IMG/VR virus record: IMGVR_UViG_3300013137_002215
Direction: 5' to 3' (one strand)
DNA: 64,000 nucleotides
From: an uncultured virus (IMG/VR IMGVR_UViG_3300013137_002215)
Taxonomy: Duplodnaviria; Heunggongvirae; Uroviricota; Caudoviricetes
A program made the translations under genes and the position numbers. This document shows, in pieces, positions 10,199 to 48,641 of the stretch. The notes beneath the pieces are model-generated. The model searched no databases, was not told where the DNA came from, and worked only from the letters and a program-made list of their open reading frames with translations. Position 1 is the stretch's first letter. Every line of letters begins with the position of its first letter.

Positions 10199-12181
10199 TT
10201 ACTTTTCTTCGCATGATTCGGTGAATTTACATCTTGGATAATTTGAACAACCTAAGAATTTATTACCGTCTTTACTTATTCTTTCCAACAATTCACCTTT
10301 TTTACCTGCTTTTTCACAATTTGGACATGACTTTCCTGTTTTTTTTGCCTTTACTTTCTGAAATACTTCAAAACTGCCATCTTCATTCTGTTTATAAATA
10401 GTTTTACATTCAGGATATTTATTACAGGTATAAAAAGAGCCAAATCTGCCAACTTTTTTAATAATATCGCCCTCTTTACAAACTATGCATTTTTCACCCG
10501 TTTTATCCTCTTTTTTACCATCTTTGTTTGAATCAATTTTCTTAATTTCTTCCATCATTTTGTTATAGGTAGCTTCTACAACCTGCAAATATTTCTTTTC
10601 ACCTTTAGCTATTAAGTCTAAATCATCTTCCAAAGCAGATGTAAACTTAATATCCATAAAAAAGTCTTTAAAATGAGGTTCTAGATAATCGTATACCTTC
10701 ATACCCAATTCAGTAGCTTGCAAGGCTCCTTTAGATTTCTTTACAATTTCCACATATGCTTTAGCTTGAATGTTGGACATAATACCAGCATAAGTAGAGG
10801 GTCTTCCAACACCTTCAGCTTCCATTTTTTTAATAAGACTACCTTCATTATATCTTGAAGGTGGCTGTGTGGTGTGTTTTGTTTTCTTAATTTCTTTTAA
10901 TGTCAAATTTTCTTTTTCTTTTGCTACCGGTAATATTTCTTCTTTAGTCTTAGAATAATCATAGACTTTATACCACCCATCAAATCTAACCGTCTGTCCC
11001 TTGGCTATCAAGGCATGATCGGTGTTTGTTTTGATATTATATGTAACAGTATCAACGATCATTGGGTTCATCTGACATGCAATAAAACGGTCTCTAATTA
11101 AATTATATAGCTTTTTATCGTCTGTTCCAGCTACAGATTCTCCATCATCGGCCACATGTGTTGGACGAATACATTCATGTGCTTCTTGTGCTGCCGCCTT
11201 AGATGAACGAGTATAAATATTTGCGACTTTAGGCAAATAATCGTCTCCACAAGATTTTTTAATAAACCCCCTAACTTCATCTAATGCCTCTTTAGCGATT
11301 GCAAACGAATCAGAACGAATATACGTAACAACTCCTTGCTCATACAAACCCTGAGCAATCTTAGATGTTTTAGCAGCACTCCACCCAAATAAAGAAGAAC
11401 AAGTCGTTTGTAATGAGGAGGTAATAAATGGTGGATTTGCCTCTACTTTGCGTTCTTTCTTTTCAATAGAATCTAAAACATATTTAGCACTCTTAAGTCT
11501 TTCCAAATCATTATCGGCTATTTTTTCTTCCAGATACTTGTTTTCTTTATCTTTGGTTATTACTTTTGCCCAGAACTCTCCATTTTCTGCATTCAAAAGA
11601 GCTTCTACAAACCAATAATCTTGTGGTTTGAATGCTTGAATTTCTTTTTCTTTCATACATACTAATTTAAGAGCAATAGACTGAACTCTTCCGGCAGACG
11701 TTCCTTTACTAACACCAAACCATAATACCGGAGAAACCTTATAGCCTATTAATCTGTCTAATACCTGTCTTGCTTTTTGAGCACTTACCAAATCACCATC
11801 TATATCTCTAGTTTTTTTCAATGCTTCTAAAACTGCATTTTTTGTTATTTCGTTAAACGTTACTCTCTTACATTTTTGTTGAGATGACTTATCTAAAACA
11901 TTAAAAATATGATAAGATATAGCTTCGCCTTCTCTATCCATATCTGTAGCTAAGAATATTTTTTCTGCTTCTTGCGCCACCTTCTTTATCTTTGCCACGT
12001 TTTCTTTTTTATCTTCAATAATCTCGTATTTTGGTTCAAACTGATTTTTTATGTCAATATTTATCCCCTTTTTAGGAATTTCATTTATGTGCCCAACAGA
12101 TGCCATAACATTAAAATCAGATCCTAAAAACGATTTCAGTTTCCCACACTTATTAGGTGACTCTACTATAAATAGATTCAT
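10199..12181 (-). CDS. topA: DNA topoisomerase I (type IA) with C-terminal zinc ribbons
   Basis: IVESPNK, ATDMDREGE, SAGRVQS, TYIRSDS, GVGRPSTY; start moved to the RBS-led ATG. Confidence 0.95.
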   Translation of the reverse strand: MNLFIVESPNKCGKLKSFLGSDFNVMASVGHINEIPKKGINIDIKNQFEPKYEIIEDKKENVAKIKKVAQEAEKIFLATDMDREGEAISYHIFNVLDKSSQQKCKRVTFNEITKNAVLEALKKTRDIDGDLVSAQKARQVLDRLIGYKVSPVLWFGVSKGTSAGRVQSIALKLVCMKEKEIQAFKPQDYWFVEALLNAENGEFWAKVITKDKENKYLEEKIADNDLERLKSAKYVLDSIEKKERKVEANPPFITSSLQTTCSSLFGWSAAKTSKIAQGLYEQGVVTYIRSDSFAIAKEALDEVRGFIKKSCGDDYLPKVANIYTRSSKAAAQEAHECIRPTHVADDGESVAGTDDKKLYNLIRDRFIACQMNPMIVDTVTYNIKTNTDHALIAKGQTVRFDGWYKVYDYSKTKEEILPVAKEKENLTLKEIKKTKHTTQPPSRYNEGSLIKKMEAEGVGRPSTYAGIMSNIQAKAYVEIVKKSKGALQATELGMKVYDYLEPHFKDFFMDIKFTSALEDDLDLIAKGEKKYLQVVEATYNKMMEEIKKIDSNKDGKKEDKTGEKCIVCKEGDIIKKVGRFGSFYTCNKYPECKTIYKQNEDGSFEVFQKVKAKKTGKSCPNCEKAGKKGELLERISKDGNKFLGCSNYPRCKFTESCEEK

Positions 12182-35462: not shown

Positions 35463-36092
35463 TTATACAGTTTTATTATCATTTGGAACAATATAGTTTG
35501 CTGAAATATTATTAGAATTAACATTAGATAGCGGCATAACAACTTGTGTTTTTACTTCATTTGAGACATTAGACACAGTAACAATCTCTTTCTTATCATC
35601 AATTGATTTCCAGTCCTTGCAGTTTTTCGGATCACTATCTTCTGGTTGTCGATCACAGGTCTGCTTTCCACAAGTCAGACAGGTACGAGAAGCCAAACTA
35701 GTATCATTATTCACCAACTTATTATCATTATTCTTAGTACCTTCAAAATGCCCATTCTTAATAAAACGTCTTTTTAACATCACATTATTAAATTCATGTT
35801 TGTTTCTTTCATTATTACCATTATTGTTTTGATTATTTGAATTATTCTGTGGGGCATTTTCATAACATGCTATCTCAACAATTCTATGAGAGGGTATAAT
35901 AGATTGTCCTACAGCAAACGCAAAATCTTCAGCCAAAATTCTAGTAGCTATATTAGAAATGTTTTCTTTATAACTTAGAGAAGACTCATAATTATCGTCT
36001 TCTATCGGCATTATTGTATCTATAATCTTATCATTCCTGTCTTTGTAATAAATTTTTACATAGTGTGTTTTTTTATTCCCGTTATTGCTCAT
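35463..36092 (-). CDS. hypothetical protein; N-terminus resembles MJ1316/DUF504 RNA-repair domain
   Basis: IYYKDR...IIPSHRIVEI; Asn-rich linker; Cys cluster. Confidence 0.45.
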   Translation of the reverse strand: MSNNGNKKTHYVKIYYKDRNDKIIDTIMPIEDDNYESSLSYKENISNIATRILAEDFAFAVGQSIIPSHRIVEIACYENAPQNNSNNQNNNGNNERNKHEFNNVMLKRRFIKNGHFEGTKNNDNKLVNNDTSLASRTCLTCGKQTCDRQPEDSDPKNCKDWKSIDDKKEIVTVSNVSNEVKTQVVMPLSNVNSNNISANYIVPNDNKTV

Positions 36093-36104
36093 ATTTTATT
36101 CCAA

Positions 36105-36653
36105 TCACAATATTGTTTTTATATACTCGTCCACTTTTTTATATAACTCTTCTTTTGTTCCATTATTTTGTATTTCAATATTACCTTTTAAATCATACGC
36201 CTCACTTGCATGATTTAACAATCCAACTTTGCCATCACAACCATCTCTTATAACCTTAATACAAAAAAACTTATTACCATTTTTACTTTGCTCTACAAAA
36301 AAATTATATTCGTTTGGAAATCTAATGTCGGCAGTTACATAATTAGAAGATTTGTCATTTTGTATTTTATACCATAACGATTTAACCCAAACTTCATCAT
36401 CTATTTGTTCTCTAAACAGCTCTGTACCAATGAATTGTAAAAGTTTTCTTACTGTCCAATTACTCCAGTTTTTTAAAGGTTTTTCTCTTTCTACTCTATC
36501 ATATACCGTAAGATCATCCAGTACAAAAACATCTTTAACCAATCTTTTAATAGGATCTGCTAAAGATATTTTCTTAAATCCATACTTTGCAACTAAATAA
36601 TCAGCAATAGTATCTTTACCACTACCAGCCTTGCCACAAAGTCCTATTAACAT
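36105..36653 (-). CDS. deoxynucleoside monophosphate kinase
   Basis: IGLCGKAGSGKDT, SLADPIK, RKLLQFIGTE, DIRFPNE, HASE. Confidence 0.92.
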   Translation of the reverse strand: MLIGLCGKAGSGKDTIADYLVAKYGFKKISLADPIKRLVKDVFVLDDLTVYDRVEREKPLKNWSNWTVRKLLQFIGTELFREQIDDEVWVKSLWYKIQNDKSSNYVTADIRFPNEYNFFVEQSKNGNKFFCIKVIRDGCDGKVGLLNHASEAYDLKGNIEIQNNGTKEELYKKVDEYIKTIL

Positions 36654-36671
36654 AAGTTCACCCGCAAAGTA

Positions 36672-37412
36672 TTATACATAAAACATTTTTCTAGGCATAA
36701 GATTATACGGTGAAGCAAAAAATATTGATTTGTTGGGTTTCAAATCACCTTTTACCAAATAACATGTTTGAGATACAGGATTGCGTGGACCTTTCAAATA
36801 ATACATATTGTCACCAAAAACACTTATCATGTTTTTTATATGTTGTTTGTAAGTATCATGTTCTGAGGTTATATTCCAAGTAGCAACGCCCTCATTTTTA
36901 AGCATTTGTTTTATAGCACTTATAAATTCTTTTTTCTGAACACCTTTGGGCATATAATCAGAATCAAAAACATCTACAAATATAATGTCATACGATTTTT
37001 CATTTTTTATTTTATTTACAACACCAAAAGCATCACCCATAATTATATTGGTATTAGAATTTGGTTTAAAATTAAAATACTCACTTGCAATTTTGGGTAT
37101 TTCAGGATCTATCTCAATAATATCAACATTAACAGAAGGTAAAAATCTATAAACATGATTGATTATAATCGCTCCACCCATTCCAACCATTAAAATATTA
37201 GAAGGATTACTTACAAACGCAAAAGCACACATGGCTAACAAACTATAATCAAAAACATGGAAATAAGGATAATTAACATGTGTTCCAGATTGATCTCTAC
37301 ACATACCACTACCAAAATTAAATTGCAATAAGCGAATATTATTTTCTTCTACAACACTAATGTCACTATATTGCGATTTAATATGATAAAGAATTTTGGG
37401 GGAGGAAATCAT
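36672..37412 (-). CDS. spermidine-synthase-like SAM-dependent transferase
   Basis: ILMVGMGGA, IEIDP, GDAF, YDIIFVDVF. Confidence 0.8.
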   Translation of the reverse strand: MISSPKILYHIKSQYSDISVVEENNIRLLQFNFGSGMCRDQSGTHVNYPYFHVFDYSLLAMCAFAFVSNPSNILMVGMGGAIIINHVYRFLPSVNVDIIEIDPEIPKIASEYFNFKPNSNTNIIMGDAFGVVNKIKNEKSYDIIFVDVFDSDYMPKGVQKKEFISAIKQMLKNEGVATWNITSEHDTYKQHIKNMISVFGDNMYYLKGPRNPVSQTCYLVKGDLKPNKSIFFASPYNLMPRKMFYV

Positions 37413-37418
37413 AAAAAA

Positions 37419-37850
37419 TTAAAATTTGTTTCTTTTGTTTCTATTATCGTCTCTTCTATCATTATTATGTTTAACTATTTTATCCCAATATTCATCTGAA
37501 ATTAAATCTGGTTTATCTTCAACACTTCTATTATCATAAAAAATTGACCCACCAAGTCCATATTCTTTATTACATTTAAAAACCTTAATATTAACACTTT
37601 CTAAATAAGGAATTATTTCATTTATAAGATCGTGTCCATCAATATAACTATCATTTGTGTCGCATAATTTGTCTATTGCTTTATTTAAGGCGATTTTATA
37701 CTGTTCTTCAAATTTTTCTTGGGGCAAATCACACTTAAACCAAACAGGATAATATTCTTCCCAACCAGATACAAATATAACATAATAATAGTCCATATTA
37801 ATCTCCAATATTTCACTTAGTATTCGTATTTTATTCCCATTACATCGCAA
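37419..37850 (-). CDS. hypothetical protein (start probably internal, MDYYY)
   Basis: ORF track. Confidence 0.5.
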   Translation of the reverse strand: MRCNGNKIRILSEILEINMDYYYVIFVSGWEEYYPVWFKCDLPQEKFEEQYKIALNKAIDKLCDTNDSYIDGHDLINEIIPYLESVNIKVFKCNKEYGLGGSIFYDNRSVEDKPDLISDEYWDKIVKHNNDRRDDNRNKRNKF

Positions 37851-38083
37851 GCTCTCTTAACCATAGACTTAGTAAGATTCACTGCACCTCTCTCTGTTAC
37901 TTCTTCTATGAGGATTCTTAGGGCCTCTCTTACATATAAAACCTGTTCTGAATTAAGCGTTATAGATCTACTGATACACTTTTCAGGGTTATGAAACAAT
38001 CTAAATTTGCAACAATGTATACAGAATTTTCCAATACCAAGTTTCTTCATAATATCTTCTATCTTATAATATATTTTATGCAT
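37817..38083 (-). CDS. hypothetical protein
   Basis: ORF track. Confidence 0.45.
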   Translation of the reverse strand: MHKIYYKIEDIMKKLGIGKFCIHCCKFRLFHNPEKCISRSITLNSEQVLYVREALRILIEEVTERGAVNLTKSMVKRACDVMGIKYEY

Positions 38084-38116
38084 TTTGTTAATTTTCCATC
38101 TGTTTTAATAATATAT

Positions 38117-38474
38117 TGGAGGTGGGCGGAATTGAACCGCCGTCCCAAAAATAAGTTTTTATATCATCTACATGTTTAGTCTATATTTTCTTTTGCCTAG
38201 ACAAGCCGCACTAAAAGTTTTTACAAGAGCACACTTAGTATTTTAGTCACTCTATAGCAACTAATCATGAGCAGTTGCCAACTCAGTTCCCATTATATTA
38301 GTCGTACTCACGGATATTAATGGTAATTTCTCCGTTTTCCTATGCCGCTTTATTAAGCAGCCATTTTAAGTGGTTCGGCACTTATAACCGTTTTGTCGGC
38401 TTTTATGCTGGCCAACCGACAAACCAGCACATGCAGGTATATTATTTATTTCTGGTCGAAACCTGTACACCCCC
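38117..38474 (-). ncRNA. ssrA: tmRNA; tag reading frame AEPLKMAA (38353-38379)
   Basis: 5' GGGGGTGTACAGGTTTCGAC; 3' GACGGCGGTTCAATTCCGCCCACCTCCA with G3:U pair; pk1; ATAAGT-GCC resume codon; tag ends AA-TAA-TAA. Confidence 0.95.
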
Positions 38475-38834
38475 ATTTTTAACATTTTTCGTTATTCTTT
38501 TCCACGCTCTAAAAGCCTTCTTACAATCTTTCTCCTCTATTTTCTTAAAAGTTTTCATATCTAGAAATCCACACTTAATACATGTTTTATAAATAAACTT
38601 AAATGGTATTCCGCCCAAAGAATATTTATATTTTTGGTGTGGACAGACATCGTACCCGTTTTCATATGCAGTTACATGTTCTATAGATATATCATTCTGT
38701 TTGGCAAATTCTCTAAGACCTATACGATTATCTCTTCTTAATTCTCTCATAGATTTTCTATAACGTAGTTCGTCCGTAAGAGTCTTGCCACTCAATTTAT
38801 GCTTTGATAATGGATAAACCTTATTAATACTCAT
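38442..38834 (-). CDS. HTH (XRE-like) + zinc-binding protein
   Basis: RELRRDNRIGLREFAKQNDISIEHVTAYENG; CPH...CIKC. Confidence 0.6.
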   Translation of the reverse strand: MSINKVYPLSKHKLSGKTLTDELRYRKSMRELRRDNRIGLREFAKQNDISIEHVTAYENGYDVCPHQKYKYSLGGIPFKFIYKTCIKCGFLDMKTFKKIEEKDCKKAFRAWKRITKNVKNGGVQVSTRNK

Positions 38835-38996
38835 TTTTCTTTCCTATCTAAAAAGCTTATCATTTTATCTTCAAAATCGATCGTTTCTTTTACTAGTGCT
38901 TTAAACTCAGCCCAAGAAATATCATGATCTAAACTTTCTTCGCAAATGGTTAGTATTTTCTGAATACTAGTTCGACTAAATTCATGTTTCTTCATC

Positions 38997-39491
38997 TTAC
39001 ACCTTAACCGCTATAAAACAACCTTTACTATATTTAATCTTATCCCATCCCAAATGTCTAAAAATATAACTTTGCAAAGCCAACATTTCTTTCTCATTTT
39101 TAGCCCAACTATCTTTAGCAGGATATAATTCCAACATAATAACACAAGATGTTTTAGCTACCCTATCTATTTCCCTAATAAGTTGCATTCTTTCCACCGG
39201 ATTTAAAAACATCATTAAATAATTGCACAATATAATGTCTATAGATTTATTTTTTAATGGTAATTTTTCATGTCCTAATATACACTCTATACCATAATCA
39301 TTCGCCATGTCTAACGAAATAACCTTGCAGCCTTTTTCTTTTGCAAACTCAGAATTTCTTCCATTTCCACAACCAATATCCAAAACTACCTTGTTTTTAT
39401 CAAGAATATCGCAATTATTTCTCAAATATGGACAGGGTGTATTTCTTCCACAACGCACACAGTATTTATCATTCAAATATTTTCTGCTCAT
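38997..39491 (-). CDS. class I SAM methyltransferase
   Basis: VLDIGCGNGRN. Confidence 0.85.
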   Translation of the reverse strand: MSRKYLNDKYCVRCGRNTPCPYLRNNCDILDKNKVVLDIGCGNGRNSEFAKEKGCKVISLDMANDYGIECILGHEKLPLKNKSIDIILCNYLMMFLNPVERMQLIREIDRVAKTSCVIMLELYPAKDSWAKNEKEMLALQSYIFRHLGWDKIKYSKGCFIAVKV

Positions 39492-39538
39492 ATCACTCCC
39501 TATAAACCAGATAACTTTAGACGTGCAAAATCACCTCA

Positions 39539-39955
39539 TCACTCTTCAGAACCACAGAACAAATTAATAATTTTTTCGTCTCTTATCAATTTTTCTTCTT
39601 GGTCTTTCAGTTCATTAATTTTATCACGAAATTCCATGTTAACAAAATATCCATTTCTATCAAGTTGTCCTTCCATTTCATCGGGGTCATAAAGTCCTTT
39701 TGCTTGAAGTCTATGAAGAACATATCCTAGATTTCTCCTAGATAATACTTCGGAAACAAAATATGTAGAAGCTTCTTCATAAGTAGAAAACTCTTTATGA
39801 ATTTTTTCACCGTAAATAAGATAATGACAGCCAATACGTAAAAATTCAACCTTAGAATACCAATCCTTCCAAGATTTTTTATAAGGAAATGAGATAGTTC
39901 CACCTAGTTCAAGAAATTTTTTGATATCCATGATTATTCCCCACGATAATGACAA
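39539..39955 (-). CDS. hypothetical protein
   Basis: ORF track. Confidence 0.5.
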   Translation of the reverse strand: MSLSWGIIMDIKKFLELGGTISFPYKKSWKDWYSKVEFLRIGCHYLIYGEKIHKEFSTYEEASTYFVSEVLSRRNLGYVLHRLQAKGLYDPDEMEGQLDRNGYFVNMEFRDKINELKDQEEKLIRDEKIINLFCGSEE

Positions 39956-40002
39956 CCTACTGCTCCTATTTTTTTCATCCCCTATCTCTGCTCATGTGAT
40001 TA

Positions 40003-40377
40003 TTATATCCTAAATTTCAAAGGAGGCAATCTTTTTCTACCAGCCTCCATATTTTCTTCCATTATTTCTGGCTTAGTAGTATGAGTTGTAGTTTGTATTG
40101 GTATATCTGTCTTTCGTTTTTCTTGAACATTATATTTTATCTGTCTAACTGCAATTTCACTACATCGTTTTGTTTCTGGCTGTTCACTTGGAGCATAAGG
40201 AATGGCATTTTTCCAATTATCGGGCAATTCATTTATATTGGTAATTAATATTATATCTGCCCTTCCAAACTCTTTAATTTCCTGCTCCGAATTAGCCAAT
40301 GCAATATCTTCGGCTTCTTTTTCATTATTTGCCATTACACATATTTCTGTCCATATCTTTGCTTTATAGAGTTGCAT
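40003..40377 (-). CDS. hypothetical protein
   Basis: ORF track. Confidence 0.55.
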   Translation of the reverse strand: MQLYKAKIWTEICVMANNEKEAEDIALANSEQEIKEFGRADIILITNINELPDNWKNAIPYAPSEQPETKRCSEIAVRQIKYNVQEKRKTDIPIQTTTHTTKPEIMEENMEAGRKRLPPLKFRI

Positions 40378-40648
40378 TTTTGGCTATATCAATCAATTTG
40401 GTATGTTCGCTTACTTCAAATTTTGCAAATTTAGACAAATATTTTAACATAACTTCTTTTCTTGATTTAGATAAAAAAGCGGTAAAGTCCCAAACAATAG
40501 ATTCATCAGTAACTAATGCTTCAGGATGCCCCAATAACTTTAGAATCATGTTTATTTGTTTTTTATAACTACTTATATCGTTAGTTTCTGCCAATTCAAA
40601 TTTTAGATTTTTGTTTTTTAATAATTTTTGAGCTTTTATCATTCTCAT
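40364..40648 (-). CDS. hypothetical protein
   Basis: HPEALVTDES..DF. Confidence 0.55.
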   Translation of the reverse strand: MRMIKAQKLLKNKNLKFELAETNDISSYKKQINMILKLLGHPEALVTDESIVWDFTAFLSKSRKEVMLKYLSKFAKFEVSEHTKLIDIAKNATL

Positions 40649-40767
40649 TTATTAATCCTAAATATTTAGATCTTTGTATCTCTATTTCTAGTGGTGATGT
40701 GCCTTGAATTTCTAATAGTTGTTCTTTATAGCGCCATAGTATAAATTTATCTTTGTTCGTCACATAG

Positions 40768-41416
40768 TTATTCTACAGTTTCTACGTCCTTTTCTTTAAA
40801 TTCAACACTAACACTGTCCATAAATCTTTTAATATCCCAAAAAGAAAAAGGATAAAAATTGTTATTATCTACACCAACATCAACAGATCTATAAAAGGGT
40901 TTTAAATTACTATGACTATGAGCAAAACAATGCCAACTTAATCTAAAAGCATTAGGCCAACTTCTTAATGAATAATGACTTAATATCATCATTTGCCCAT
41001 TAATTGTAACAGTTTTTATAGTAGCTTCTGTTTTATCGGTTATATTGCCTATTATTGTTAATTTACCAGTCTTTAATAGGTTATTCAATAAGCCTTTTTG
41101 ATATGCTTGTCTTATAGGCTTATCATGATTTCCAAGTAATAATATTTGTTTGCCATTTAACTGTTCTATTTGACTTACTACATACTCTGCGGAACATCTA
41201 TATCCAATATCGCCTAAATTATAAACAATATCATTTTCTTTAACCATTTCATTATGGTTTTTAATTAATATTCTATCCATCTCTTTATGATTAGCAAAAG
41301 GACGATTACAAAATCTAATTATATTTTCATGTCCTAAATAACTAATGAAAATCGGCGGTGAAAAAGACATTATTAGTGTCTCGCCCCCGATTTTCTAATT
41401 TTTCTCCTGTATTCAT
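40768..41416 (-). pseudogene. calcineurin-like metallophosphoesterase interrupted by a 7-nt insertion in motif I
   Basis: FFTADFH | TAGTTAT | LGHENII..RPF, LGD, GNHD, HSH, DVGVD. Confidence 0.75.
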
Positions 41417-41418
41417 TT

Positions 41419-41937
41419 CTATTTACCTTTCGCATTTTTTAACAGTTCCATAGCCGCAATTACAGTTTTCTCTAAAGTATTATATATAGAATAATCACCA
41501 TTATAACGCAACTTACCATCCTCAACCCACATTATATCGCAATAAGTTATTCTATAGGCATCATCGGGTCTTCCATATATAACCTTATGCCTGTTTGAAC
41601 CAATCCAATATCCTAATTCAAAATTTGTTGTAAGACCTATTAATTCTCTTGTTCTAGGCAACCAAAACATAATAACCTGAGACTTTCTTAGCCCTTCAAA
41701 TTCCCACACAGGTATATCGTATCTATATTTATCAGAAACAGTTGGAATATCAAATTCTGGAACAATAATATTACCTTCAAAATTACGTATTTTAAAAATC
41801 TCTATAGCATCAGGTCGCCAAGATTTTAAATGGGTTTGATTTCCGCGCACCGTACATCCTGCCAGAAAAATCGTGGGCAGTTTAAAATCTATTGCCGACA
41901 TTGGAGTTTCATATTTTATAACATTCATCAGTAGCAA
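41419..41937 (-). CDS. nucleoside 2-deoxyribosyltransferase-like protein
   Basis: IFLAG, SWR, WE..L, VIMFW.PR, TTNFELG. Confidence 0.75.
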   Translation of the reverse strand: MLLMNVIKYETPMSAIDFKLPTIFLAGCTVRGNQTHLKSWRPDAIEIFKIRNFEGNIIVPEFDIPTVSDKYRYDIPVWEFEGLRKSQVIMFWLPRTRELIGLTTNFELGYWIGSNRHKVIYGRPDDAYRITYCDIMWVEDGKLRYNGDYSIYNTLEKTVIAAMELLKNAKGK

Positions 41938-42215
41938 TCCGGAGGTAGTAGTGGACCATAAAATAATTCGCCATTACTTGCAATTTCATTTACTGGTCCA
42001 ATTCCTTCACCACCTATATACAATATCTCATCTTTATTAGAAGCATTTATTTCTATTATTATTGGAATGTCATTATTTTTAATTTTCCACCAATAGAATC
42101 CACTTTCTGTTGGTTTTTTATTTTGCCATACTAAGTAGATTTCTTTATCTTTCAATTCGCCGCATAGCCCTTCAGCTTTTAAATTATCGCAAGTTCTAGT
42201 GAAATAATTATCCAT
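41928..42215 (-). CDS. hypothetical protein
   Basis: W...KPTESGFYWW...GPL.PP. Confidence 0.55.
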   Translation of the reverse strand: MDNYFTRTCDNLKAEGLCGELKDKEIYLVWQNKKPTESGFYWWKIKNNDIPIIIEINASNKDEILYIGGEGIGPVNEIASNGELFYGPLLPPDCY

Positions 42216-42411
42216 TTTTAATCCATTCTTCTAATTTTTCATAACAATCTTTACATAAATGATATTTCTCAACCACACATGAATTTTTCTTTATAGAACA
42301 GTTAGAGAAACAAAATTAATTATCTGAACAATTAATAGGTGGCGACAATATTATTCCACCAAAATCATTTAATTCTTTAGAACATTTGTCACACTTAGGA
42401 TTTATAGGCAT
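42208..42411 (-). pseudogene. small CxxC...CxxC protein with an in-frame TAA
   Basis: MPINPKCDKC...SPPINCSDN*FCF...KYHLCKDCY...KNG*. Confidence 0.55.
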
Positions 42412-42413
42412 TT

Positions 42414-42596
42414 TCAAGCATACCATTTATCTACTTCATTATATACATCTATAACTTTTTTATAACCTAATTCTACTAACAAATTACACAGTAAATCATC
42501 TGCATTACCATGTGCTACTTCGGTATCGCCATTATCGATACATTCTTTCATAGCTCTAATGGCATTTTCTTCAAATGGCAAATATTTATCTTTCAT
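42414..42596 (-). CDS. conserved small phage protein
   Basis: DTEVAHGNADDLLC..L..LGY...KWYA. Confidence 0.7.
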   Translation of the reverse strand: MKDKYLPFEENAIRAMKECIDNGDTEVAHGNADDLLCNLLVELGYKKVIDVYNEVDKWYA

Positions 42597-42808
42597 ATTA
42601 TTACTCCGCTAGTTTAAACCTGAAAGACATATTATTTTCTTTCAAAAGTGCTAAAAACGAATTTACTTTCTCACCTGTTATTTCCAGTATATCAGAATTA
42701 CAGAACTTTTTAACAATATCTTGTGCCTTGCCTGAAATAACAGTTATAATTGCTTTATTTTCTTGTGGTTTTGCTAATACTAATACGTCACGATCTGCAT
42801 TTATCATT

Positions 42809-43081
42809 TTATTTCTCCTCTATTATTTTAGACGGCGGTAATGTTATAAATACTTTAACTATGTCATAAAAAACATATGTCAATCCAGCACCCAAAATAA
42901 GAAACGTACTAAATGATATATCCTTAGAAATTACACTGGCCAACAACAATGTAAATAAAAACAAAGGAACTATTAATGTACAACCCAATATTGTCCATAA
43001 TGTCCTTATAAAACTAAATTTTGCAAGTTTCATATGTTTACCATGTTCTATGTTTTTCCGAAACCCACTCTTGACCATCAT
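42809..43081 (-). CDS. two-TM membrane protein
   Basis: Two hydrophobic stretches. Confidence 0.5.
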   Translation of the reverse strand: MMVKSGFRKNIEHGKHMKLAKFSFIRTLWTILGCTLIVPLFLFTLLLASVISKDISFSTFLILGAGLTYVFYDIVKVFITLPPSKIIEEK

Positions 43082-43457
43082 ATTCTTCTATTTCCCATTG
43101 TACACCATCTGGAATTTCTGTTATTTCTAATTTGGCACATCGTCCATTAGCCTTATCACCTAATTTTTCTACTGTTTTAATCAGTTCGGGATCGTCTCTC
43201 TCTATAGCACTATCACTAAAATAAGATTTATCATCATATTTACCATTTTTTAAAGGCTTAGTAGAATAATGAATAATAAGAGGAAGTCCGTCTTTTTCAG
43301 GATTATAGGGAATGAACTTATTAACATTTATATTTCCTTTATCATCTCTTTCTTCAATAAAAGCATATAGTTTTATACCCTTATTATTGGCATATTCCAT
43401 TACTCCAGCATAACTTAAACTAAATCCACCATAACATTTATTTACTGCTATTTTCAT
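43038..43457 (-). CDS. conserved phage hypothetical protein
   Basis: NKCYGGFSLS, RDDPEL..VEKLG..ANG, IEEYDG.E. Confidence 0.75.
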   Translation of the reverse strand: MKIAVNKCYGGFSLSYAGVMEYANNKGIKLYAFIEERDDKGNINVNKFIPYNPEKDGLPLIIHYSTKPLKNGKYDDKSYFSDSAIERDDPELIKTVEKLGDKANGRCAKLEITEIPDGVQWEIEEYDGQEWVSEKHRTW

Positions 43458-43680
43458 AATATCTCCTTATTCTAACTTTTTTGCCGTTTTGAAAATTATA
43501 ACCGCCCACTACTCCTGCTTCATATGACCAAATCATTAACTGAATATAATTATACCAAGGATGCAATCTTTTCATTTCCTTACACCATTTAACTAAACTA
43601 TCTATATCACAACCATGTTTTATTGAGTTGAAGTAATATTTTTTCATTTTATTTATCGTTTTATATTCGGTGCTGGTATT

Positions 43681-43707
43681 ATTATACATAGATTTTGGAT
43701 GTGTCAA
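43681..43707 (-). promoter_or_regulatory. promoter TTGACA-N15-TATAAT
   Basis: TTGACA CATCCAAAATCTATG TATAAT, just downstream of the last tRNA. Confidence 0.7.
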
Positions 43708-43713
43708 GTAAAA

Positions 43714-43786
43714 AGCCGATGATAGGATTTGAACCTACAACCTTCTCTATACCAAAGAGGAGCTATACCAATTTAGCTACATCGGC
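43714..43786 (-). tRNA. tRNA-Thr(GGT)
   Basis: GCCGATG acceptor; loop TT-GGT-AT; GGTTCAAATCC. Confidence 0.9.
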
Positions 43787-43789
43787 AAA

Positions 43790-44458
43790 TTATTTTCTAT
43801 AAGCGAATATTCTATAACATGACAAATTTCTTCTTCGTATCCTACCAACAGTACGACATATACTATTTACACTTGTTACTATTTGGCTCATATCTACTGT
43901 TTCGTGTTCTAATTCAAAATTATTTAATAACAATTTATTTGTATATAGTTCTACAATACTTTTATAATCAAAATTTCTTATATCAAACGTCAAAACAATG
44001 CATCCTTGTGGTTTAACAAAATCAATTATGTTTTTTATAGCTGGTTCGTGCCATTTTACAGGAAAATGCTCTAATACACTTATACAACACACGGCATCAA
44101 ATTTTTCTTTAATTGATGGACGCACAATATTGTCTTTAATATATTGCATATTAAGATTTAAAAGTTCATTATATTTATATGAATTAATACTAAAAATATC
44201 AGTACCAATCACCTTGTTAAATCCAGTATCTTTTAATATAAAAATTCCTGGTTGTGTATTACCAGTACCAACATCTAAAACAGATTTATTATTTGTGTTT
44301 TTAAAATAAGAAATTAACACGTCTCTAAGCCATTTATATTCGTAAACTCTTGACCACCAGCCATTACTAAAAAAGTCCCATTTTATTTTATTATATGTAA
44401 ATTCCTTCATAATAGAATCTGTGTTTATAAAATATCTACTTCTAAATATGTTGTTCAT
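43790..44458 (-). CDS. class I SAM methyltransferase located inside the tRNA array
   Basis: WSRVYEY.W, VLDVGTG, FDAVCCISVLEH; start moved to the ATG downstream of the tRNA. Confidence 0.8.
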   Translation of the reverse strand: MNNIFRSRYFINTDSIMKEFTYNKIKWDFFSNGWWSRVYEYKWLRDVLISYFKNTNNKSVLDVGTGNTQPGIFILKDTGFNKVIGTDIFSINSYKYNELLNLNMQYIKDNIVRPSIKEKFDAVCCISVLEHFPVKWHEPAIKNIIDFVKPQGCIVLTFDIRNFDYKSIVELYTNKLLLNNFELEHETVDMSQIVTSVNSICRTVGRIRRRNLSCYRIFAYRK

Positions 44459-44561
44459 GATATATAATTCTAAAAATTTAAAATGGTCCCTGTATTGTTT
44501 TCTATAGTAGATGTTTAAAATAACTATCACTAAGGAGGCATTATAAAGAAAAATAGAAAAA

Positions 44562-44647
44562 TGGTGCTGGTGGTGGGACTCGAACCCACATAGTCTTTCG
44601 ACCCGCATTAAGAGTGCGGCATTCCAAACCAATTGAATCACACCAGC
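44562..44647 (-). tRNA. tRNA-Lys(CTT), long variable arm, CCA encoded
   Basis: CCGCA CT-CTT-AA TGCGG; V-arm GTC-GAAA-GAC. Confidence 0.9.
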
Positions 44648-44656
44648 CAAAAGTAA

Positions 44657-44748
44657 TGGGGCTGGTAGGATTTGAACCTACGACGGAGGCTTACGCCATC
44701 TTCGCATTAAAAGTGCGATGTTTTCGACCAATCTTAACTTACAACCCC
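44657..44748 (-). tRNA. tRNA-Lys(TTT), long variable arm
   Basis: TCGCA CT-TTT-AA TGCGA; ~20-nt V region containing GGC-GTAA-GCC. Confidence 0.88.
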
Positions 44749-44757
44749 GCAAAAAAT

Positions 44758-44834
44758 TGGTGATCGGGAGAGGACTCGAACCTCTGATAAAACAGGGTGT
44801 AGACCTGTCGCAGTTGCCGCTGTGCCACCCGACC
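44758..44834 (-). tRNA. tRNA-Val(TAC), C33, CCA encoded
   Basis: ACAGG TC-TAC-AC CCTGT; A73. Confidence 0.85.
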
Positions 44835-44842
44835 TAAAAATA

Positions 44843-44921
44843 TGGAGCGGGAGATGGGATTTAAACCCACGTAAAAATCTACACTGGCAATGTAGTGCCT
44901 GAATCACTAGGCTACTCCCGC
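44843..44921 (-). tRNA. tRNA-Gly(GCC), CCA encoded
   Basis: GCGGGAG acceptor, U73; CTACA TT-GCC-AG TGTAG. Confidence 0.88.
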
Positions 44922-44923
44922 AA

Positions 44924-45004
44924 AGCCGGAAGTGGGACTCGAACCCACGGTGTTTGTGTACCTGATTACGGATCAGGTGTAGTCGCCTCTGATACCATTC
45001 CGGC
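44924..45004 (-). tRNA. tRNA-Thr(CGT), C33, enlarged variable region
   Basis: GCCGGAA acceptor; CCTGA TC-CGT-AA TCAGG. Confidence 0.87.
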
Positions 45005-45014
45005 AAAAAAATAA

Positions 45015-45104
45015 AGCCGACAGTTGGATTCGGACCAACGCGGAAAGCTTTAAACTTTCGTCAGATTACAGATCTGATACTTTCAACCTCTCAGTCATGT
45101 CGGC
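45015..45104 (-). tRNA. tRNA-Thr(TGT), C33, long variable arm
   Basis: GCCGACA acceptor; TCAGA TC-TGT-AA TCTGA; V-arm GAAAG...CTTTC. Confidence 0.85.
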
Positions 45105-45109
45105 ATAAA

Positions 45110-45190
45110 TGCGGGTAGAGAGAATTGAACTCTCATCCTCTGCTTGGAGGGCAGTAATAATACGCTTTCGCTCCATTATACTATACCCGC
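45110..45190 (-). tRNA. tRNA-Gly(TCC), C33, hairpin inserted in D-loop
   Basis: GCGGGTA acceptor; CTGC CC-TCC-AA GCAG; D-loop insert GC-GAAA-GC. Confidence 0.85.
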
Positions 45191-45195
45191 AAAAT

Positions 45196-45272
45196 TGGTA
45201 GGCGTGAGTGGAGTTGAACCACCGTTAGAGCCTTATAAGGACCCCGTTCTAAAACCGTTGAACTACACGCCC
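45196..45272 (-). tRNA. tRNA-Ile(TAT), CCA encoded
   Basis: GGGTC CT-TAT-AA GGCTC; A73. Confidence 0.88.
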
Positions 45273-45274
45273 AT

Positions 45275-45303
45275 AAAAGGGTTTATTTTCATAACAAACC
45301 CTT
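45275..45303 (-). terminator. terminator-like hairpin inside the tRNA array
   Basis: AAGGGTTTGTT-loop-AATAAACCCTT, ending in a short T run. Confidence 0.5.
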
Positions 45304-45345
45304 ATTACCTCCCTAATATTCGATTTTAAAAGAACTCAAAAGATC

Positions 45346-45553
45346 CATAGTACTCAAGGATTTCACGCCGTTCTATATCAGATGCCTCCGATATAATCTA
45401 TCTTTTTCCTATGCGGTACTTAAGGATTTCACCAATGTTCTTGCTTAGAATGCCTTCTTAGCAATCTCTCTTTTTCCCATATTATTTATCTACTCATAAT
45501 AGATCAGGTTTTGCTGCCGTTTCCTTTCCCACCTGAAGTCTCTGTTTAACGGC
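45346..45553 (-). ncRNA. unclassified structured RNA: pseudoknot element plus two tandem ~68-nt homologous units
   Basis: Units share GGAAAAAGA.AGAT-[hairpin, GGCA loop]-GAAC..GTGAAATCCTTRAGTAC; stems differ in sequence but keep pairing. Confidence 0.65.
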
Positions 45554-45566
45554 TTGTAATAAATTT

Positions 45567-45658
45567 TGGTGGAGCAGGTGACGCTTGAAGTCACATTAAA
45601 ATGTCCAAAGACATGCCAGAGTGCAAATCTGGTGGACTGCCTCTTGTCCTACTGCCCC
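45567..45658 (-). tRNA. tRNA-Ala(TGC), long variable arm, CCA encoded
   Basis: G3:U70; CCAGA TT-TGC-AC TCTGG; V-arm ATGTC-TTTG-GACAT. Confidence 0.9.
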
Positions 45659-45670
45659 ACATTAATCAAA

Positions 45671-45683
45671 TTTTTAAAGAACA
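45671..45683 (-). promoter_or_regulatory. boxA-like antitermination element
   Basis: TGTTCTTTAAAAA in the first inter-tRNA spacer. Confidence 0.6.
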
Positions 45684-45693
45684 AACCAAATTC

Positions 45694-45769
45694 TGGTGGA
45701 GGAGAGCGGTAATGATCCGCTATTTTCGGTTTTTCAGACCGACACATACACCATGTTTGTTACTCCTCC
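45694..45769 (-). tRNA. tRNA-Phe(GAA), atypical T-loop, CCA encoded
   Basis: TCGGT CT-GAA-AA ACCGA; T-loop ATCATTA. Confidence 0.88.
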
Positions 45770-45770
45770 T

Positions 45771-45807
45771 AAAAAACAAAAAAGCCCGATTTAAAAATCG
45801 GGCTTTT
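45771..45807 (-). terminator. attenuator terminator (3:4 helix + U tract) directly before the first tRNA
   Basis: AAAAGCCCGATTT-TT-AAATCGGGCTTTT then TTGTTTTTT. Confidence 0.9.
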
Positions 45808-45829
45808 CCTATTCAATTTTCCTATAAAT

Positions 45830-45913
45830 TTAGCTTTTTACAGGAAAAGCCCGTTTACAACCGGCGAATTTTCCGGTTATAACCTTTACTGCTTTTCCTG
45901 TCGTCGCTAACAT
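45830..45913 (-). CDS. attenuator leader peptide MLATTGKAVKVITGKFAGCKRAFPVKS
   Basis: AGGA RBS 8 nt upstream; codons cognate to the downstream tRNAs; overlaps attenuator segments 1 and 2. Confidence 0.85.
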   Translation of the reverse strand: MLATTGKAVKVITGKFAGCKRAFPVKS

Positions 45914-45942
45914 AATCATTTTCCTATACTTGTTATTCTAAG

Positions 45943-45969
45943 ATTATATAACTTTTCCTGCTTTGTCAA
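45943..45969 (-). promoter_or_regulatory. promoter of the tRNA operon (TTGACA-N15-TATAAT)
   Basis: TTGACA AAGCAGGAAAAGTTA TATAAT. Confidence 0.75.
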
Positions 45970-45985
45970 CCACTAAAATAAAAAA

Positions 45986-46420
45986 TTATTCTTTCTTATG
46001 TTCTTCAATATTATCCGTATCAATTAATTTTAAATCTGGTTGATCTGCTGATATTTTCTTAATAAATGGAGTTGCATTAGCTTCCACATTATTTCCGTTA
46101 TTATCCGTAGTAGCCAATGTGTCCTTATCTATTTCTACAATTTGTGGACCATTATTTAACTCTGGTTCTACTAATTTTGGTCTAAAATCTGCCTTTACTT
46201 TATTTTTTGACTTACCTGTTTTACTTTCTTCTTCGCCCTGTATCTTATTCAAAAAATAAAACAAATTACCGATTAGAAATTTATATCCGCCTCTCCAATC
46301 GTGAAAATCTTCTGTTCCATCTTCGGTTTCTTTAAATCCACATAAAAAGAAATCCTTAACGCCATGATGTTCGACTTCACTTACATTATCGCCCTCTTCT
46401 GGAATTATTTTAACTATCAT
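45986..46420 (-). CDS. hypothetical protein
   Basis: AAGGAG RBS. Confidence 0.6.
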   Translation of the reverse strand: MIVKIIPEEGDNVSEVEHHGVKDFFLCGFKETEDGTEDFHDWRGGYKFLIGNLFYFLNKIQGEEESKTGKSKNKVKADFRPKLVEPELNNGPQIVEIDKDTLATTDNNGNNVEANATPFIKKISADQPDLKLIDTDNIEEHKKE

Positions 46421-46440
46421 TTTATTTCTCCTTTTTATTT

Positions 46441-47355
46441 TTAACAGAATCCTTTATCTTTCATTATTTGTACAAAAACTTTTACTACCCCTTCAGGAGA
46501 AGCATTATTTTCGTACCATTCACTTGCCGCATTAACAATTTCATTCATATTATACTTACTTTCTAAATCTTGTAAAGAAGTGTTTTCATCAAAATATATA
46601 AAATGTTTTCCTGGTATTAATGGATTATAATAAAATGGCTTATAATTCATCAATAAGGGTTTTTTAAGTATCATATAATCTATTTCCCTGCGATTTTTGC
46701 CTTCTGTTAAATGACTGCTTCTGCCCTTAATGATTATACCATATTTACTTTTAATCATTTCTGCGGCATACTCTTCATCATTAATTATTCTGCCACATTT
46801 TAGTTCATTATTGCTTTCTATTACTTTAAATTTTTCTTTAATTAATTTGTTTGTCCATTTCTTTCTACAACGCCACATTTTACCACAAAAGAACCCTAAC
46901 TGTTCAACAGGCAATATAGGAAAAGGAATATTTTTTTTCAAATATTTATATATTGGTCTACTACAGAAAAATGTCCACGGAACAATTTTTTTAGAAAACG
47001 CTATTTTTTCTTCATCTGTCCTTTTGGTTAATATATTTCTTTTATGACATGTTTTTAAAAATCTTGCATCGTCCATTTGTTTGTGTTGCAATTTAATAAT
47101 CAAATCAAAATTATAATCATAAACCTCTTCAGAATAAGTAGGCGTATTATATTCCCAAAAATCCAAATATATTTTTTTACCATTAAATAAAACAATAGCG
47201 GCACGTTCACATCTCATTGCCTTAATTGATAAGTTATGATATTTTACATCAAATAACTGACTGCCTTCCAAGTAACGCAGAAACTCAGTCATACCTAGCG
47301 TCATTAATGGATTAGCTATGTCGTTTTTGTTAATTTCTAATACTGGTTTGTTCAT
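46441..47355 (-). CDS. putative glycosyltransferase (GT-B-like C-terminus)
   Basis: KSKYG..KG..NRREIDYM..P..LIPGKHFI. Confidence 0.55.
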   Translation of the reverse strand: MNKPVLEINKNDIANPLMTLGMTEFLRYLEGSQLFDVKYHNLSIKAMRCERAAIVLFNGKKIYLDFWEYNTPTYSEEVYDYNFDLIIKLQHKQMDDARFLKTCHKRNILTKRTDEEKIAFSKKIVPWTFFCSRPIYKYLKKNIPFPILPVEQLGFFCGKMWRCRKKWTNKLIKEKFKVIESNNELKCGRIINDEEYAAEMIKSKYGIIIKGRSSHLTEGKNRREIDYMILKKPLLMNYKPFYYNPLIPGKHFIYFDENTSLQDLESKYNMNEIVNAASEWYENNASPEGVVKVFVQIMKDKGFC

Positions 47356-48641
47356 TTTGGGTGATTATTTGGCATTACAACAGTACCATCTGGATTAACT
47401 ACCGCCATACAACATAATTTGGTTTGATTATTTTGTTTAGTTGGAGGTGGCATAGGTGTAGTAGTTGAAGTGGTAACAATATCTATTCTTGTTAAATCTG
47501 GTTGTATAACTGTTTGGGGCATAATGGGTTGTGGCGGAATTACGTTTTTATGAACAGGCGGAATAATTGAAGGAGAGATTGAAGGAGAAACAGATACTGG
47601 TTGTTCCATTTTTTCTTTCTTCTCTCTTTCTAATCTTTCTAATTTTTCTCGTTTTTCTTTTTCTTTCTTTTGTATATTTATCTCTGTTTGTATTGCCATC
47701 TTTTTCTTTTCTTCTTCGTTAGGTTCTATTTTCCATTTTGCCCTGTCTTCTAATTTCGTATATAGCCCCCATGTTCTTTCATGTTCTATATCTCCAAGTC
47801 CTTTTGTAGCATTAGTAATAGCTTCGTCAAAAGATATAAACGGAAATACTTTTAAAGAACTCTCTCTATTGCAATTATATACTTTAAATCCAGCAGCATC
47901 GAAATGTGGCTTTAACTGGGGAAAATATTCTTCAATTAATCGCTTATAAGTACTTAAATTACCATTTACTGCCCCTTTATCTCGTTGTTCATCAAAGTGG
48001 TAAGTGTTTTCTGCGGTCATATTTAAATCACAACCAAGTAAATAAACGGTTCTAAATCCAAGCAAGTAAAGTATTCTAAGTGAAGGTAACATAACGCTTC
48101 TACTGCCACCATAGTCTTTATGATTACCCCAATTTATAGTTGTTTCTTTTAAAAATCTATCCGCTATAAAGTGCTCATTGCGTCTGAAACCAACAACATT
48201 CGGACAGGAACCAACTTTCTTATTCATCAATTCCCATTTTTCATTATCAAAAATAGGTTTTTCAAAATGTGCTTGAGGAACAAATTTCATTATTTTAGGA
48301 TCTAGCCATATAGACTTCATAAATCTTGGAGGATCATCAACACATGTCCAAAAATCAGGTCTGAAAGTTTTAGGACCATTATTTACACCTAATGTCATAA
48401 TACCTGGTTTTTTCAATAATGCATGATTTAACTGGCTAAAACTAGGTCCGTTACAAATCATAAATGCAGATGAGCCTTTATATTGACCTATTAAATCTAT
48501 AGGCGCACCATCTCTTGTGAAGAAAAAAGGAATACTCTGTCCAAATTCTTTAGTCACGTCTACCCCCGAATGTCTTTCTCTTGGATGTCTGAAGAACAGA
48601 TCGTCATTCCTATCTATCCTATCATTTTCCAAGTCACTCAT
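47352..48641 (-). CDS. Maf/DUF115-like glycosyltransferase family protein with Pro-rich tail
   Basis: FMICNGPSF, TLGVN, LYLLGFRTVYLLGCDL. Confidence 0.7.
   Translation of the reverse strand: MSDLENDRIDRNDDLFFRHPRERHSGVDVTKEFGQSIPFFFTRDGAPIDLIGQYKGSSAFMICNGPSFSQLNHALLKKPGIMTLGVNNGPKTFRPDFWTCVDDPPRFMKSIWLDPKIMKFVPQAHFEKPIFDNEKWELMNKKVGSCPNVVGFRRNEHFIADRFLKETTINWGNHKDYGGSRSVMLPSLRILYLLGFRTVYLLGCDLNMTAENTYHFDEQRDKGAVNGNLSTYKRLIEEYFPQLKPHFDAAGFKVYNCNRESSLKVFPFISFDEAITNATKGLGDIEHERTWGLYTKLEDRAKWKIEPNEEEKKKMAIQTEINIQKKEKEKREKLERLEREKKEKMEQPVSVSPSISPSIIPPVHKNVIPPQPIMPQTVIQPDLTRIDIVTTSTTTPMPPPTKQNNQTKLCCMAVVNPDGTVVMPNNHPK

Follow-up and report, generated by a model that had tools for sequence, protein, structure and literature searches.

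In the 64,000-nucleotide stretch of an uncultured virus analysed here (IMG/VR record IMGVR_UViG_3300013137_002215; the whole stretch is called the window), an array of eleven transfer RNA (tRNA) genes on the minus strand is preceded by a short leader at positions 45771-45969. This leader is quite likely a ribosome-mediated transcription attenuator of the trp/thr/ilv type placed before a phage tRNA operon, and the phage probably makes the eleven tRNAs only when ribosomes read their codons slowly. The output of the operon would be the very tRNAs that read the sensor codons of its leader, and the arrangement would therefore amount to a supply-and-demand feedback on tRNA availability with single-isoacceptor resolution. 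The term "multi-input OR gate", used in an earlier note drawn up from this DNA alone, would be a fair description of the logic. What carries this reading, at the level of sequence comparison, is how the leader is built and conserved, that both alternative helices covary, and that leader codons have evolved together with the content of the tRNA array.

All elements of the leader lie on the minus strand. Its promoter-like site (45943-45969) consists of TTGACA (45969-45964), a conserved GCAGGA (45961-45956) and TATAAT (45948-45943); its spacer measures 15 nucleotides, which keeps it out of the list of a generic sigma-70 scan. The window has a single copy of the motif TTGACNNNGCAGGA, as does each of five of the related loci described below (L026, L031, L039, L043 and L056), and every copy stands upstream of the leader. 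A Shine-Dalgarno-like AGGA (45922-45925) stands 8 nucleotides before the ATG at 45913, which opens a reading frame of 27 codons plus stop (45830-45913, TAA at 45832-45830), encoding MLATTGKAVKVITGKFAGCKRAFPVKS; an alternative in-frame start lies two codons upstream, at 45919. Read by eye, 12 of 16 homologous leaders have a comparable purine run 5-12 nucleotides before their ATG. Codons 3-18 of the open reading frame (ORF) specify only alanine, threonine, glycine, lysine, valine, isoleucine and phenylalanine, and the promoter, the AGGA, the 27-codon ORF and these seven specificities, all reported by the earlier note, are borne out by the sequence. Codons 4-16, here called the sensor, occupy 45904-45866.

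The RNA downstream of the start codon offers a set of competing helices. Segment 1, ACAGGAAAAGC (45891-45901), pairs with segment 2, CGGGCTTTTCCTGT (45840-45853), in the minimum free energy fold, the predicted state of a leader that is untranslated or terminated. The helix encloses in its loop a hairpin of 9 base pairs (45856-45881), formed by TATAACCGG and CCGGTTGTA (45881-45873 with 45864-45856), which may serve as a pause hairpin. Segment 2 has two further possible partners. One is segment 2', TTTATAGGAAAA (45817-45828), an extra AGGAAAA copy that forms with TTTTCCTGTAAA (45848-45837) a 12-base-pair hairpin holding the stop codon in its loop; a comparable stop-codon hairpin of at least 9 base pairs is found in 5 of the 16 homologous leaders. 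The other is segment 3, ATAGGAAAAGCCCG (45799-45812), a perfect complement of segment 2 over 14 nucleotides, which is shared by two helices, as the 3' strand in the antiterminator and as the 5' arm in the terminator. Segments 1 and 2 and the inner stem lie where the earlier note had placed them, and segment 3 proved two nucleotides longer than the 45810-45799 given there. The intrinsic terminator (45771-45809) has a 14-base-pair stem (45809-45778) with 5 G-C pairs, a loop of 4 nucleotides and the tail TTTTTTGTTTTTT. As had been noticed before, its T-tract runs up to the first tRNA gene: it ends at 45771, 1-2 nucleotides from the start of tRNA-Phe at 45769. Codon 16 ends 12 nucleotides before segment 2, approximately the reach of a ribosome, and the stop codon follows segment 2 after 7 nucleotides, a geometry that fits attenuation.

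From this arrangement we infer that the leader is translated, that ribosome stalling within it leads to read-through, and that the two structures compete kinetically. Transcription would start at the conserved promoter-like site, and a ribosome would translate the 27-codon leader while RNA polymerase heads for the terminator. If decoding is smooth, the ribosome at the stop codon would cover segment 2, segments 3 and 4 would pair, and transcription would end 1-2 nucleotides before tRNA-Phe. If there is no translation, pairing of segments 1 and 2 would give the same outcome, that is, termination. Slow decoding at any of codons 4-16 would place the ribosome on segment 1 and leave segment 2 free; the free segment 2 would capture segment 3 as it emerges, the terminator would come too late, and the tRNA genes would be transcribed.

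The sensor matches the anticodons of the array closely. Using the cognate codon set of the eleven anticodons, we scored all 13-codon spans of the window in six frames (n = 127,924). In the span 45904-45866, 12 of 13 codons are exact cognates and 10 of the 11 anticodons are covered, the unique maximum among all spans; the best span that does not overlap it covers 8 anticodons. The eleventh tRNA, Gly(GCC), would read GGT at codon 18 by wobble. These counts agree with the earlier claim that ten anticodons have their exact codon within codons 4-16 and that Gly(GCC) is served by codon 18.

Relatives of the region were found with a neighbouring protein of 429 amino acids (47352-48641) as the query of a metagenome scan, which yielded 56 related loci at 44-73% identity to that protein (individual loci are given L numbers). 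A tRNA array lies downstream on the same strand in 13 of the 56, and a homologous leader is present in all 13. Among the 15 loci with at least 4 kilobases of downstream sequence, ten have leader and tRNAs and five have neither; in L025 and L049 the contig ends just past a leader-like ORF. The tRNA set of the related arrays is near-identical to that of the window, comprising Ala(UGC), Lys(UUU), Lys(CUU), Ile(UAU), Val(UAC), Gly(UCC), Gly(GCC), Thr(UGU), Thr(GGU) and Thr(CGU), sometimes with the addition of Met(CAU), Val(GAC) or Ala(GGC). In L030, L041, L043, L044 and L045 a protein gene stands between the terminator and the first tRNA. Other searches were less productive. Comparison of 43600-46100 with GenBank phages by blastn gave short tRNA-sized matches in 8 records only and no leader relative, IMG/VR scans with two flanking proteins found no relatives, and an IMG/VR scan with the exact terminator sequence returned 0 matches. 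A pattern of segment 2 followed by segment 3 had 3 matches in IMG/VR, all on G+C-rich contigs without tRNAs, which were taken as chance. Relatives of the DNA polymerase in IMG/VR provided 4 loci at 27-44% identity, which carry many tRNA blocks and lie too far away in sequence to be informative.

Whether leader codons follow the tRNA content of related arrays had been named beforehand as a test, and the leaders passed it. We compared the 11 leader-array pairs with arrays that do not run off a contig. Left out were L025 and L049, where the contig stops before any tRNA, and four loci with arrays that are, or may be, truncated (L039, L045, L047 and L070). The share of anticodons with an exact codon in the sensor of their own leader is 0.918 as compared with 0.680 in shuffled pairings, sensor codons that their own array can decode make up 0.647 as compared with 0.487, and the F1 of the tracking is 0.734 as compared with 0.533, each with p about 1e-5 in 100,000 permutations; because related leaders share ancestry, these permutation p-values, and the Fisher p-values as well, overstate independence, which counts against the reading. 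With the segment-1 codons removed, the exact-codon share is still 0.885, against 0.612 in shuffled pairings. Counted case by case, including a Thr(CGU) gene of L043 that ARAGORN missed, the leader has the exact codon in 65 of the 73 cases with the tRNA in its array, and in 33 of the 92 cases without it.

Individual loci illustrate the tracking. The leader KAIKAKAAKAAAKAA of L041 precedes an array made up of alanine and lysine tRNAs only (Ala(GGC), two Lys(CUU), Lys(UUU) and Ala(UGC)). L056 has two leaders before two blocks: the first, a valine/alanine leader, VGKTVKAVAAVAAVVAA (MRLVGKTVKAVAAVAAVVAA...), stands before Val(UAC), Ala(UGC) and Ala(GGC), and the second, a lysine/glycine/threonine/valine leader, VITGKTIKKTTGGTV (MQQVITGKTIKKTTGGTV...), which has no alanine codon, stands before Lys, Gly, four Thr, Gly, Val and Lys, a block with no alanine tRNA. 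In L066 the leader GIAGGIGAAGAIA precedes Ala, Gly, Gly and Ile, and in L030 a leader without glycine codons precedes an array without glycine tRNA.

The RNA switch is conserved along with the codons. A complement of segments 2 and 3 of 10-17 nucleotides is present in 16 of 16 leaders; with 300 shuffles per leader, none reaches it in 12 leaders, at most 3 do so in 15 leaders, and 26 do so in L070. The sequences that form it differ, being CGGGCTTTTCC/GGAAAAGCCCG in most leaders, GGGCTTCTTT/AAAGAAGCCC in L066, AACAGGCTTGTTC/GAACAAGCCTGTT in L045 and GATTGGGTTT/AAACCCAATC in L070. In an alignment of the 16 sequences (56% mean column identity), pairing amounts to 84.6% in the antiterminator helix 2:3, where both sides have changed in 11 of 17 pairs, and to 95.5% in the terminator helix 3:4, where this holds for 9 of 14. 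In neither helix does any of 500 shuffles reach the paired-cell percentage, the covariation score or either of the two double-change counts; the number of further pair types is matched in 6 of 500 shuffles for 2:3 and in 2 of 500 for 3:4. When partners were slid against each other as controls, pairing fell to 23-63%. Covariation in both of two mutually exclusive helices with one strand in common is what marks a switch. The 1:2 complement is more variable: 9 of the 16 leaders have at least 10 nucleotides of it, the other 7 have a weak one or none, and in single leaders 1-48 of 300 shuffles do as well.

The reading frame is kept together with the helices. An ATG-started ORF of at least 25 codons that ends between segments 2 and 3 is present in all 16 leaders, against an expectation of about 0.10 per locus in shuffled sequence, and the stop codon lies 4-24 nucleotides after segment 2 in 15 of the 16. 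This position of the stop, together with the covariation of 2:3 and 3:4, supports the trp-style wiring that the earlier note had proposed. Segment 2 is read in frame 0, 1 and 2 in 5, 6 and 5 leaders, giving RAF(P/S), GLFL or SGFS in the peptide; since all three frames are used, the 3' part of the leader is conserved as RNA and not as peptide.

Folding gives a qualified answer on the mechanism. The free leader folds at -55 kcal/mol (z = -6.5; none of 200 shuffles is as stable) into a structure that contains the 1:2 helix of 11 base pairs, the inner 9-base-pair hairpin and the terminator. At equilibrium the full-length leader keeps its terminator (P = 0.99) at all 28 modelled ribosome positions, because segment 2 can fall back on its extra partner 2'; read-through must therefore be kinetic. 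Classical attenuators are understood as kinetic too. Attenuation being kinetic, equilibrium folding with footprints was set aside as a test of the model and growing transcripts were used instead. With a ribosome at codons 5-12, the 2:3 helix has a probability of 0.97-0.99 and holds from the emergence of segment 3 until the 3' arm of the terminator (segment 4) is fully out; when the ribosome stalls at codon 14 or 16, the helix disappears about 5 nucleotides sooner.

A question remains, how much weighs against an attenuator tuned to its array? Beyond the equilibrium folds, which do not favour it, segment 1 dictates four of the sensor codons (ACA GGA AAA GCA), so RNA structure fixes them as well. 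Sensor codons are present in 1-3 copies each and, in contrast to his or pheL, do not form runs; the sensitivity to a single limiting tRNA is therefore uncertain. About 35% of sensor codons in the tracking set are not decodable by their own array. Isoleucine codons do not track: L030 has 4 ATT, L044 has 4 ATA and the second leader of L056 has 2 ATA, all without an isoleucine tRNA. TTC appears in three leaders without tRNA-Phe, and the phenylalanine match in the window may therefore be chance. GGC is missing from 6 of the 7 leaders whose arrays include Gly(GCC), and the wobble-readable GGT is present in all 6. The promoter spacer measures 15 nucleotides. Finally, the four distant DNA-polymerase relatives hold 59 tRNA blocks between them, with only one suggestive leader (in L018).

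Several of these points would suit a leader that gauges translation speed or ribosome availability in general, its codon choice being untuned to the array. The low copy number of each sensor codon, the isoleucine and phenylalanine codons that ignore the arrays and the third or so of codons left undecodable would fit such a gauge. It does not account for the finding that leaders match their own arrays better than shuffled ones by every measure taken (p about 1e-5), nor for the leader being the unique six-frame maximum in the window, and the split leaders of L056 and the alanine/lysine leader of L041 are hard to explain without tuning. We consider a general gauge of this sort unlikely, though the best surviving of the alternatives.

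An independent small gene, encoding a micropeptide or a small RNA under its own promoter and terminator, with the tRNAs expressed by leaky read-through, is less likely again. The complete promoter-ORF-terminator architecture is what one would expect of such a gene, the terminator always forms at equilibrium, and in five related loci a protein gene separates terminator and tRNAs. Against this, the C-terminal peptide is not conserved, with segment 2 read in three frames, the composition of the peptide changes with the array, and the second helix, which competes with the terminator, covaries. There is also no promoter-like site in the 1-2 nucleotides between the terminator and tRNA-Phe, and leader and array occur together in 13 of 13 loci.

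An untranslated RNA that binds tRNAs directly through codon-like triplets, in the manner of a T-box and without a ribosome, is also very improbable. Triplets complementary to the anticodons of the array would be expected under direct pairing as well, and a terminator/antiterminator switch resembles T-box logic. Yet neither a T-box nor any other riboswitch family matches, even at E up to 10 (the T-box covariance model is absent from the 32 matches at that level in 36000-48000), and the leader is far shorter than a T-box leader, which measures about 200-300 nucleotides. All 16 leaders retain an ATG and an open frame with a constant end point, as against about 0.10 by chance, most of them with a Shine-Dalgarno-like site as well, and the triplets are contiguous and in one frame, as for decoding. 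A chance origin of the codon-anticodon match, in intergenic sequence that is AT-rich and structured, is hardly credible: several matched codons (AAA, GGA, ACA, GCA) are indeed fixed by the repeated element AGGAAAAGC, but the span is the unique maximum of 127,924, the tracking persists without the segment-1 codons and recurs in diverged relatives, and the related leaders, at 56% mean column identity, are not assembly copies of one sequence.

Taken as a ribosome-mediated attenuator, the leader would have well-known counterparts. The leaders thrL (threonine and isoleucine codons) and ilvL of ilvGMEDA (leucine, isoleucine and valine codons) are multivalent leader-peptide attenuators of enterobacterial amino-acid operons. 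Like them, the phage leader has a short ORF with candidate regulatory codons for several amino acids, overlapping 2:3 and 3:4 helices (in the window joined by a predicted 1:2 helix) that end in an intrinsic terminator, and a stop codon placed such that a terminating ribosome would cover segment 2. Unlike them, it would control tRNAs, and in some relatives an RNA ligase, in place of biosynthetic enzymes; instead of codon runs it has up to ten isoacceptor-specific codons, one copy each, covering seven amino acids; its output would feed back directly on the sensed molecule; and it is phage-borne, with an extra 2:2' hairpin around the stop codon. A T-box binds a single uncharged tRNA directly, works without a ribosome and is marked by a conserved stem I and T-box motifs. 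The phage leader likewise would sense tRNA status and switch a terminator/antiterminator upstream of translation-related genes, whereas stem I and T-box motifs were not detected in it. With trpL, hisL and pheL, the last of which has its mechanism described in PMC3082878, it would share the three-helix logic and the coupling of translation and transcription; those leaders sense one amino acid through tandem codons. Over the leader Rfam gave sub-threshold matches only, with Thr_leader (RF00506) at 25.6 bits against a gathering threshold of 55 and Trp_leader (RF00513) at 24.5 against 41. In its predicted action the element works like the Thr_leader and Trp_leader families, but by sequence it belongs to none of the leader families of Rfam.

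In three of the five related loci with a protein gene between leader terminator and tRNAs, this gene encodes about 205 amino acids with a KxDG motif (L043 14056-14670, L041 8727-9350 and L045 9841-10473). The L043 gene matches Pfam RNA_ligase at 33.8 bits (cut-off 27), the L045 gene is similar and falls below that cut-off at 23.6 bits, and the L041 gene is similar by eye, with no Pfam match. A homologue was not found in the window (best tblastn E = 0.37). T4 RNA ligase and Pnkp repair tRNA-Lys cleaved by PrrC. An RNA ligase gene under the leader suggests a repair-and-replace tRNA operon.

What would make the tRNAs limiting? More tRNA does not relieve amino-acid starvation, and the sensible input is therefore a shortage of tRNA. 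Such a shortage could come from the demand of AT-rich phage genes, from decay of host tRNAs in infection or from cleavage by host anticodon nucleases. Why phages carry tRNAs at all is still debated between codon compensation and replacement of tRNAs cleaved by host defence, and phage tRNA arrays have been proposed to replace host tRNAs cut by anticodon nucleases, as set out in PMC10264068. The present arrays resemble those discussed in that paper in offering replacement tRNAs, among them tRNA-Lys, here with an RNA ligase in the same operon in related phages. Regulation of the arrays is not treated in that paper, where a term search gave 0 occurrences of "leader", "attenuat", "terminator" or "promoter", whereas the subject here is the control element. 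Cleavage by host defence may be the trigger in our phage; the RNA ligase under the same leader, the two tRNA-Lys genes and the published replacement proposal are indirect hints in this direction.

On balance, we lean towards a broader view of this phage family. Its members would set modular "test-translation" switches over tRNA genes and, in some of them, over a tRNA-repair-type RNA ligase, with one cognate codon per isoacceptor, such that any shortage opens the block; the leader would be rewritten whenever tRNAs are gained, lost or split. This would provide isoacceptor-resolved feedback and the first leader-peptide attenuation known on tRNA genes, plausibly replacing tRNAs that host anticodon nucleases destroy or that are lost in infection. 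In a search of open-access full text and bioRxiv only, no paper was found on leader-peptide attenuation of tRNA genes, phage or other, and the timing and dosing of phage tRNA gene expression are essentially undescribed. If the proposal is true, the phage treats tRNAs as an on-demand supply, classical attenuation extends from amino-acid synthesis to the tRNA pool itself, and the purpose of the tRNAs could be read from whatever opens the switch, be it amino-acid starvation, tRNA cleavage or decay of tRNA late in infection. The leaders would also offer synthetic biology a compact multi-input sensor of tRNA availability, and a codon-matched mini-ORF followed by a terminator would serve in annotation as the mark of a tRNA regulon.

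The window is AT-rich (30.7% G+C) and is a stretch of a large phage, with genes mostly on the minus strand that include a DNA polymerase, a UvsX-like recombinase and a dNMP (deoxynucleoside monophosphate) kinase. Public sequencing runs found to contain it are lake-water metagenomes only, three DNA runs, one of them a possible source of the stretch, with no RNA run among them; contigs of these three runs are identical pieces only, in which no natural variants or transcript ends were seen. Upstream of the leader, an ORF of 144 amino acids on the minus strand has its stop codon at 45986. Downstream, ARAGORN finds the eleven tRNAs, all on the minus strand. After tRNA-Phe(GAA) (45769-45694), the first behind the terminator, follow Ala(UGC) (45658-45567), Ile(UAU) (45272-45196), Gly(UCC) (45191-45109), Thr(UGU) (45104-45015), Thr(CGU) (45004-44924), Gly(GCC) (44921-44843), Val(UAC) (44834-44758), Lys(UUU) (44748-44657) and Lys(CUU) (44647-44562). 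A distal member of the same gene run, Thr(GGU) (43786-43714), is separated from Lys(CUU) by the ORF of an S-adenosylmethionine (SAM)-dependent methyltransferase (44455-43790, minus), which thus lies inside the array; no terminator was found between the array (to 44562) and this distal part (43714-44455). A second SAM-dependent methyltransferase ORF lies at 38997-39491 (minus), near the transfer-messenger RNA (tmRNA) described below, and both ORFs match, weakly (E about 1e-6), a PHROG annotated as tRNA methyltransferase.

The fourth tRNA, which ARAGORN labels Asn(ATT) and draws with a poor D arm, can be aligned to Gly(UCC) tRNAs from seven related arrays and is therefore Gly(UCC), the identity that the earlier note had given it. 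Position 33 of this tRNA (45109-45191, minus) is C instead of the near-universal U (anticodon loop CCUCCAA), which is why ARAGORN miscalls it; the copy in L046 (3350-3427) shares the CCUCCAA loop. Alanine, threonine, lysine, glycine and isoleucine tRNAs are normally short-arm (class I) tRNAs. In the region 44562-45658 (minus), many of the phage tRNAs of these five kinds are 81-95 nucleotides long, with a small additional hairpin in the variable region or D loop that frequently has a GAAA-type loop; this feature is also present in L026, L041, L043, L056 and L066.

The spacer between tRNA-Ala and tRNA-Ile (45273-45566, minus, 294 nucleotides) holds two direct copies, about 60 nucleotides each, of a hairpin-containing unit. 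Its first 57 nucleotides are 79% identical to the stretch after tRNA-Ala in L039, and its 3' end has a weak hairpin (GGGTTT...AAACCC TTTT) and a 9-codon ORF (ATG AAA ATA ...) running into tRNA-Ile. The spacer has no Rfam match, and as a candidate second attenuator it was dropped, not being clearly structured (fold z = -1.4).

Unusual tRNAs also occur in the related phages. In L066 a tRNA-like gene (10380-10474; Rfam tRNA 49.1 bits) has an anticodon loop of 8 nucleotides, for which ARAGORN gives the four-base anticodon ACGC. L031 (12349-12421) and L018 (18373-18447) have a tRNA with the anticodon CUA that ARAGORN labels "Pyl"; these are possible amber suppressors and hint at stop-codon recoding in this phage group. 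L018, whose DNA polymerase is 44% identical, also has on its minus strand, upstream of tRNA-Asn(GUU) and tRNA-Asp(GUC) (3101-2940), a 24-codon ORF (MSFKNDNNWRDADDNTSSRLVVRS) with 8 asparagine or aspartate codons, which may be an unrelated example of the same logic. In the window, a phage tmRNA (38114-38474, minus; Rfam 109.9 bits; ARAGORN tag peptide AEPLKMAA) lies 5 kilobases downstream of the array, and the proximity of a ribosome-rescue tmRNA to a leader predicted to sense stalling may be more than coincidence.

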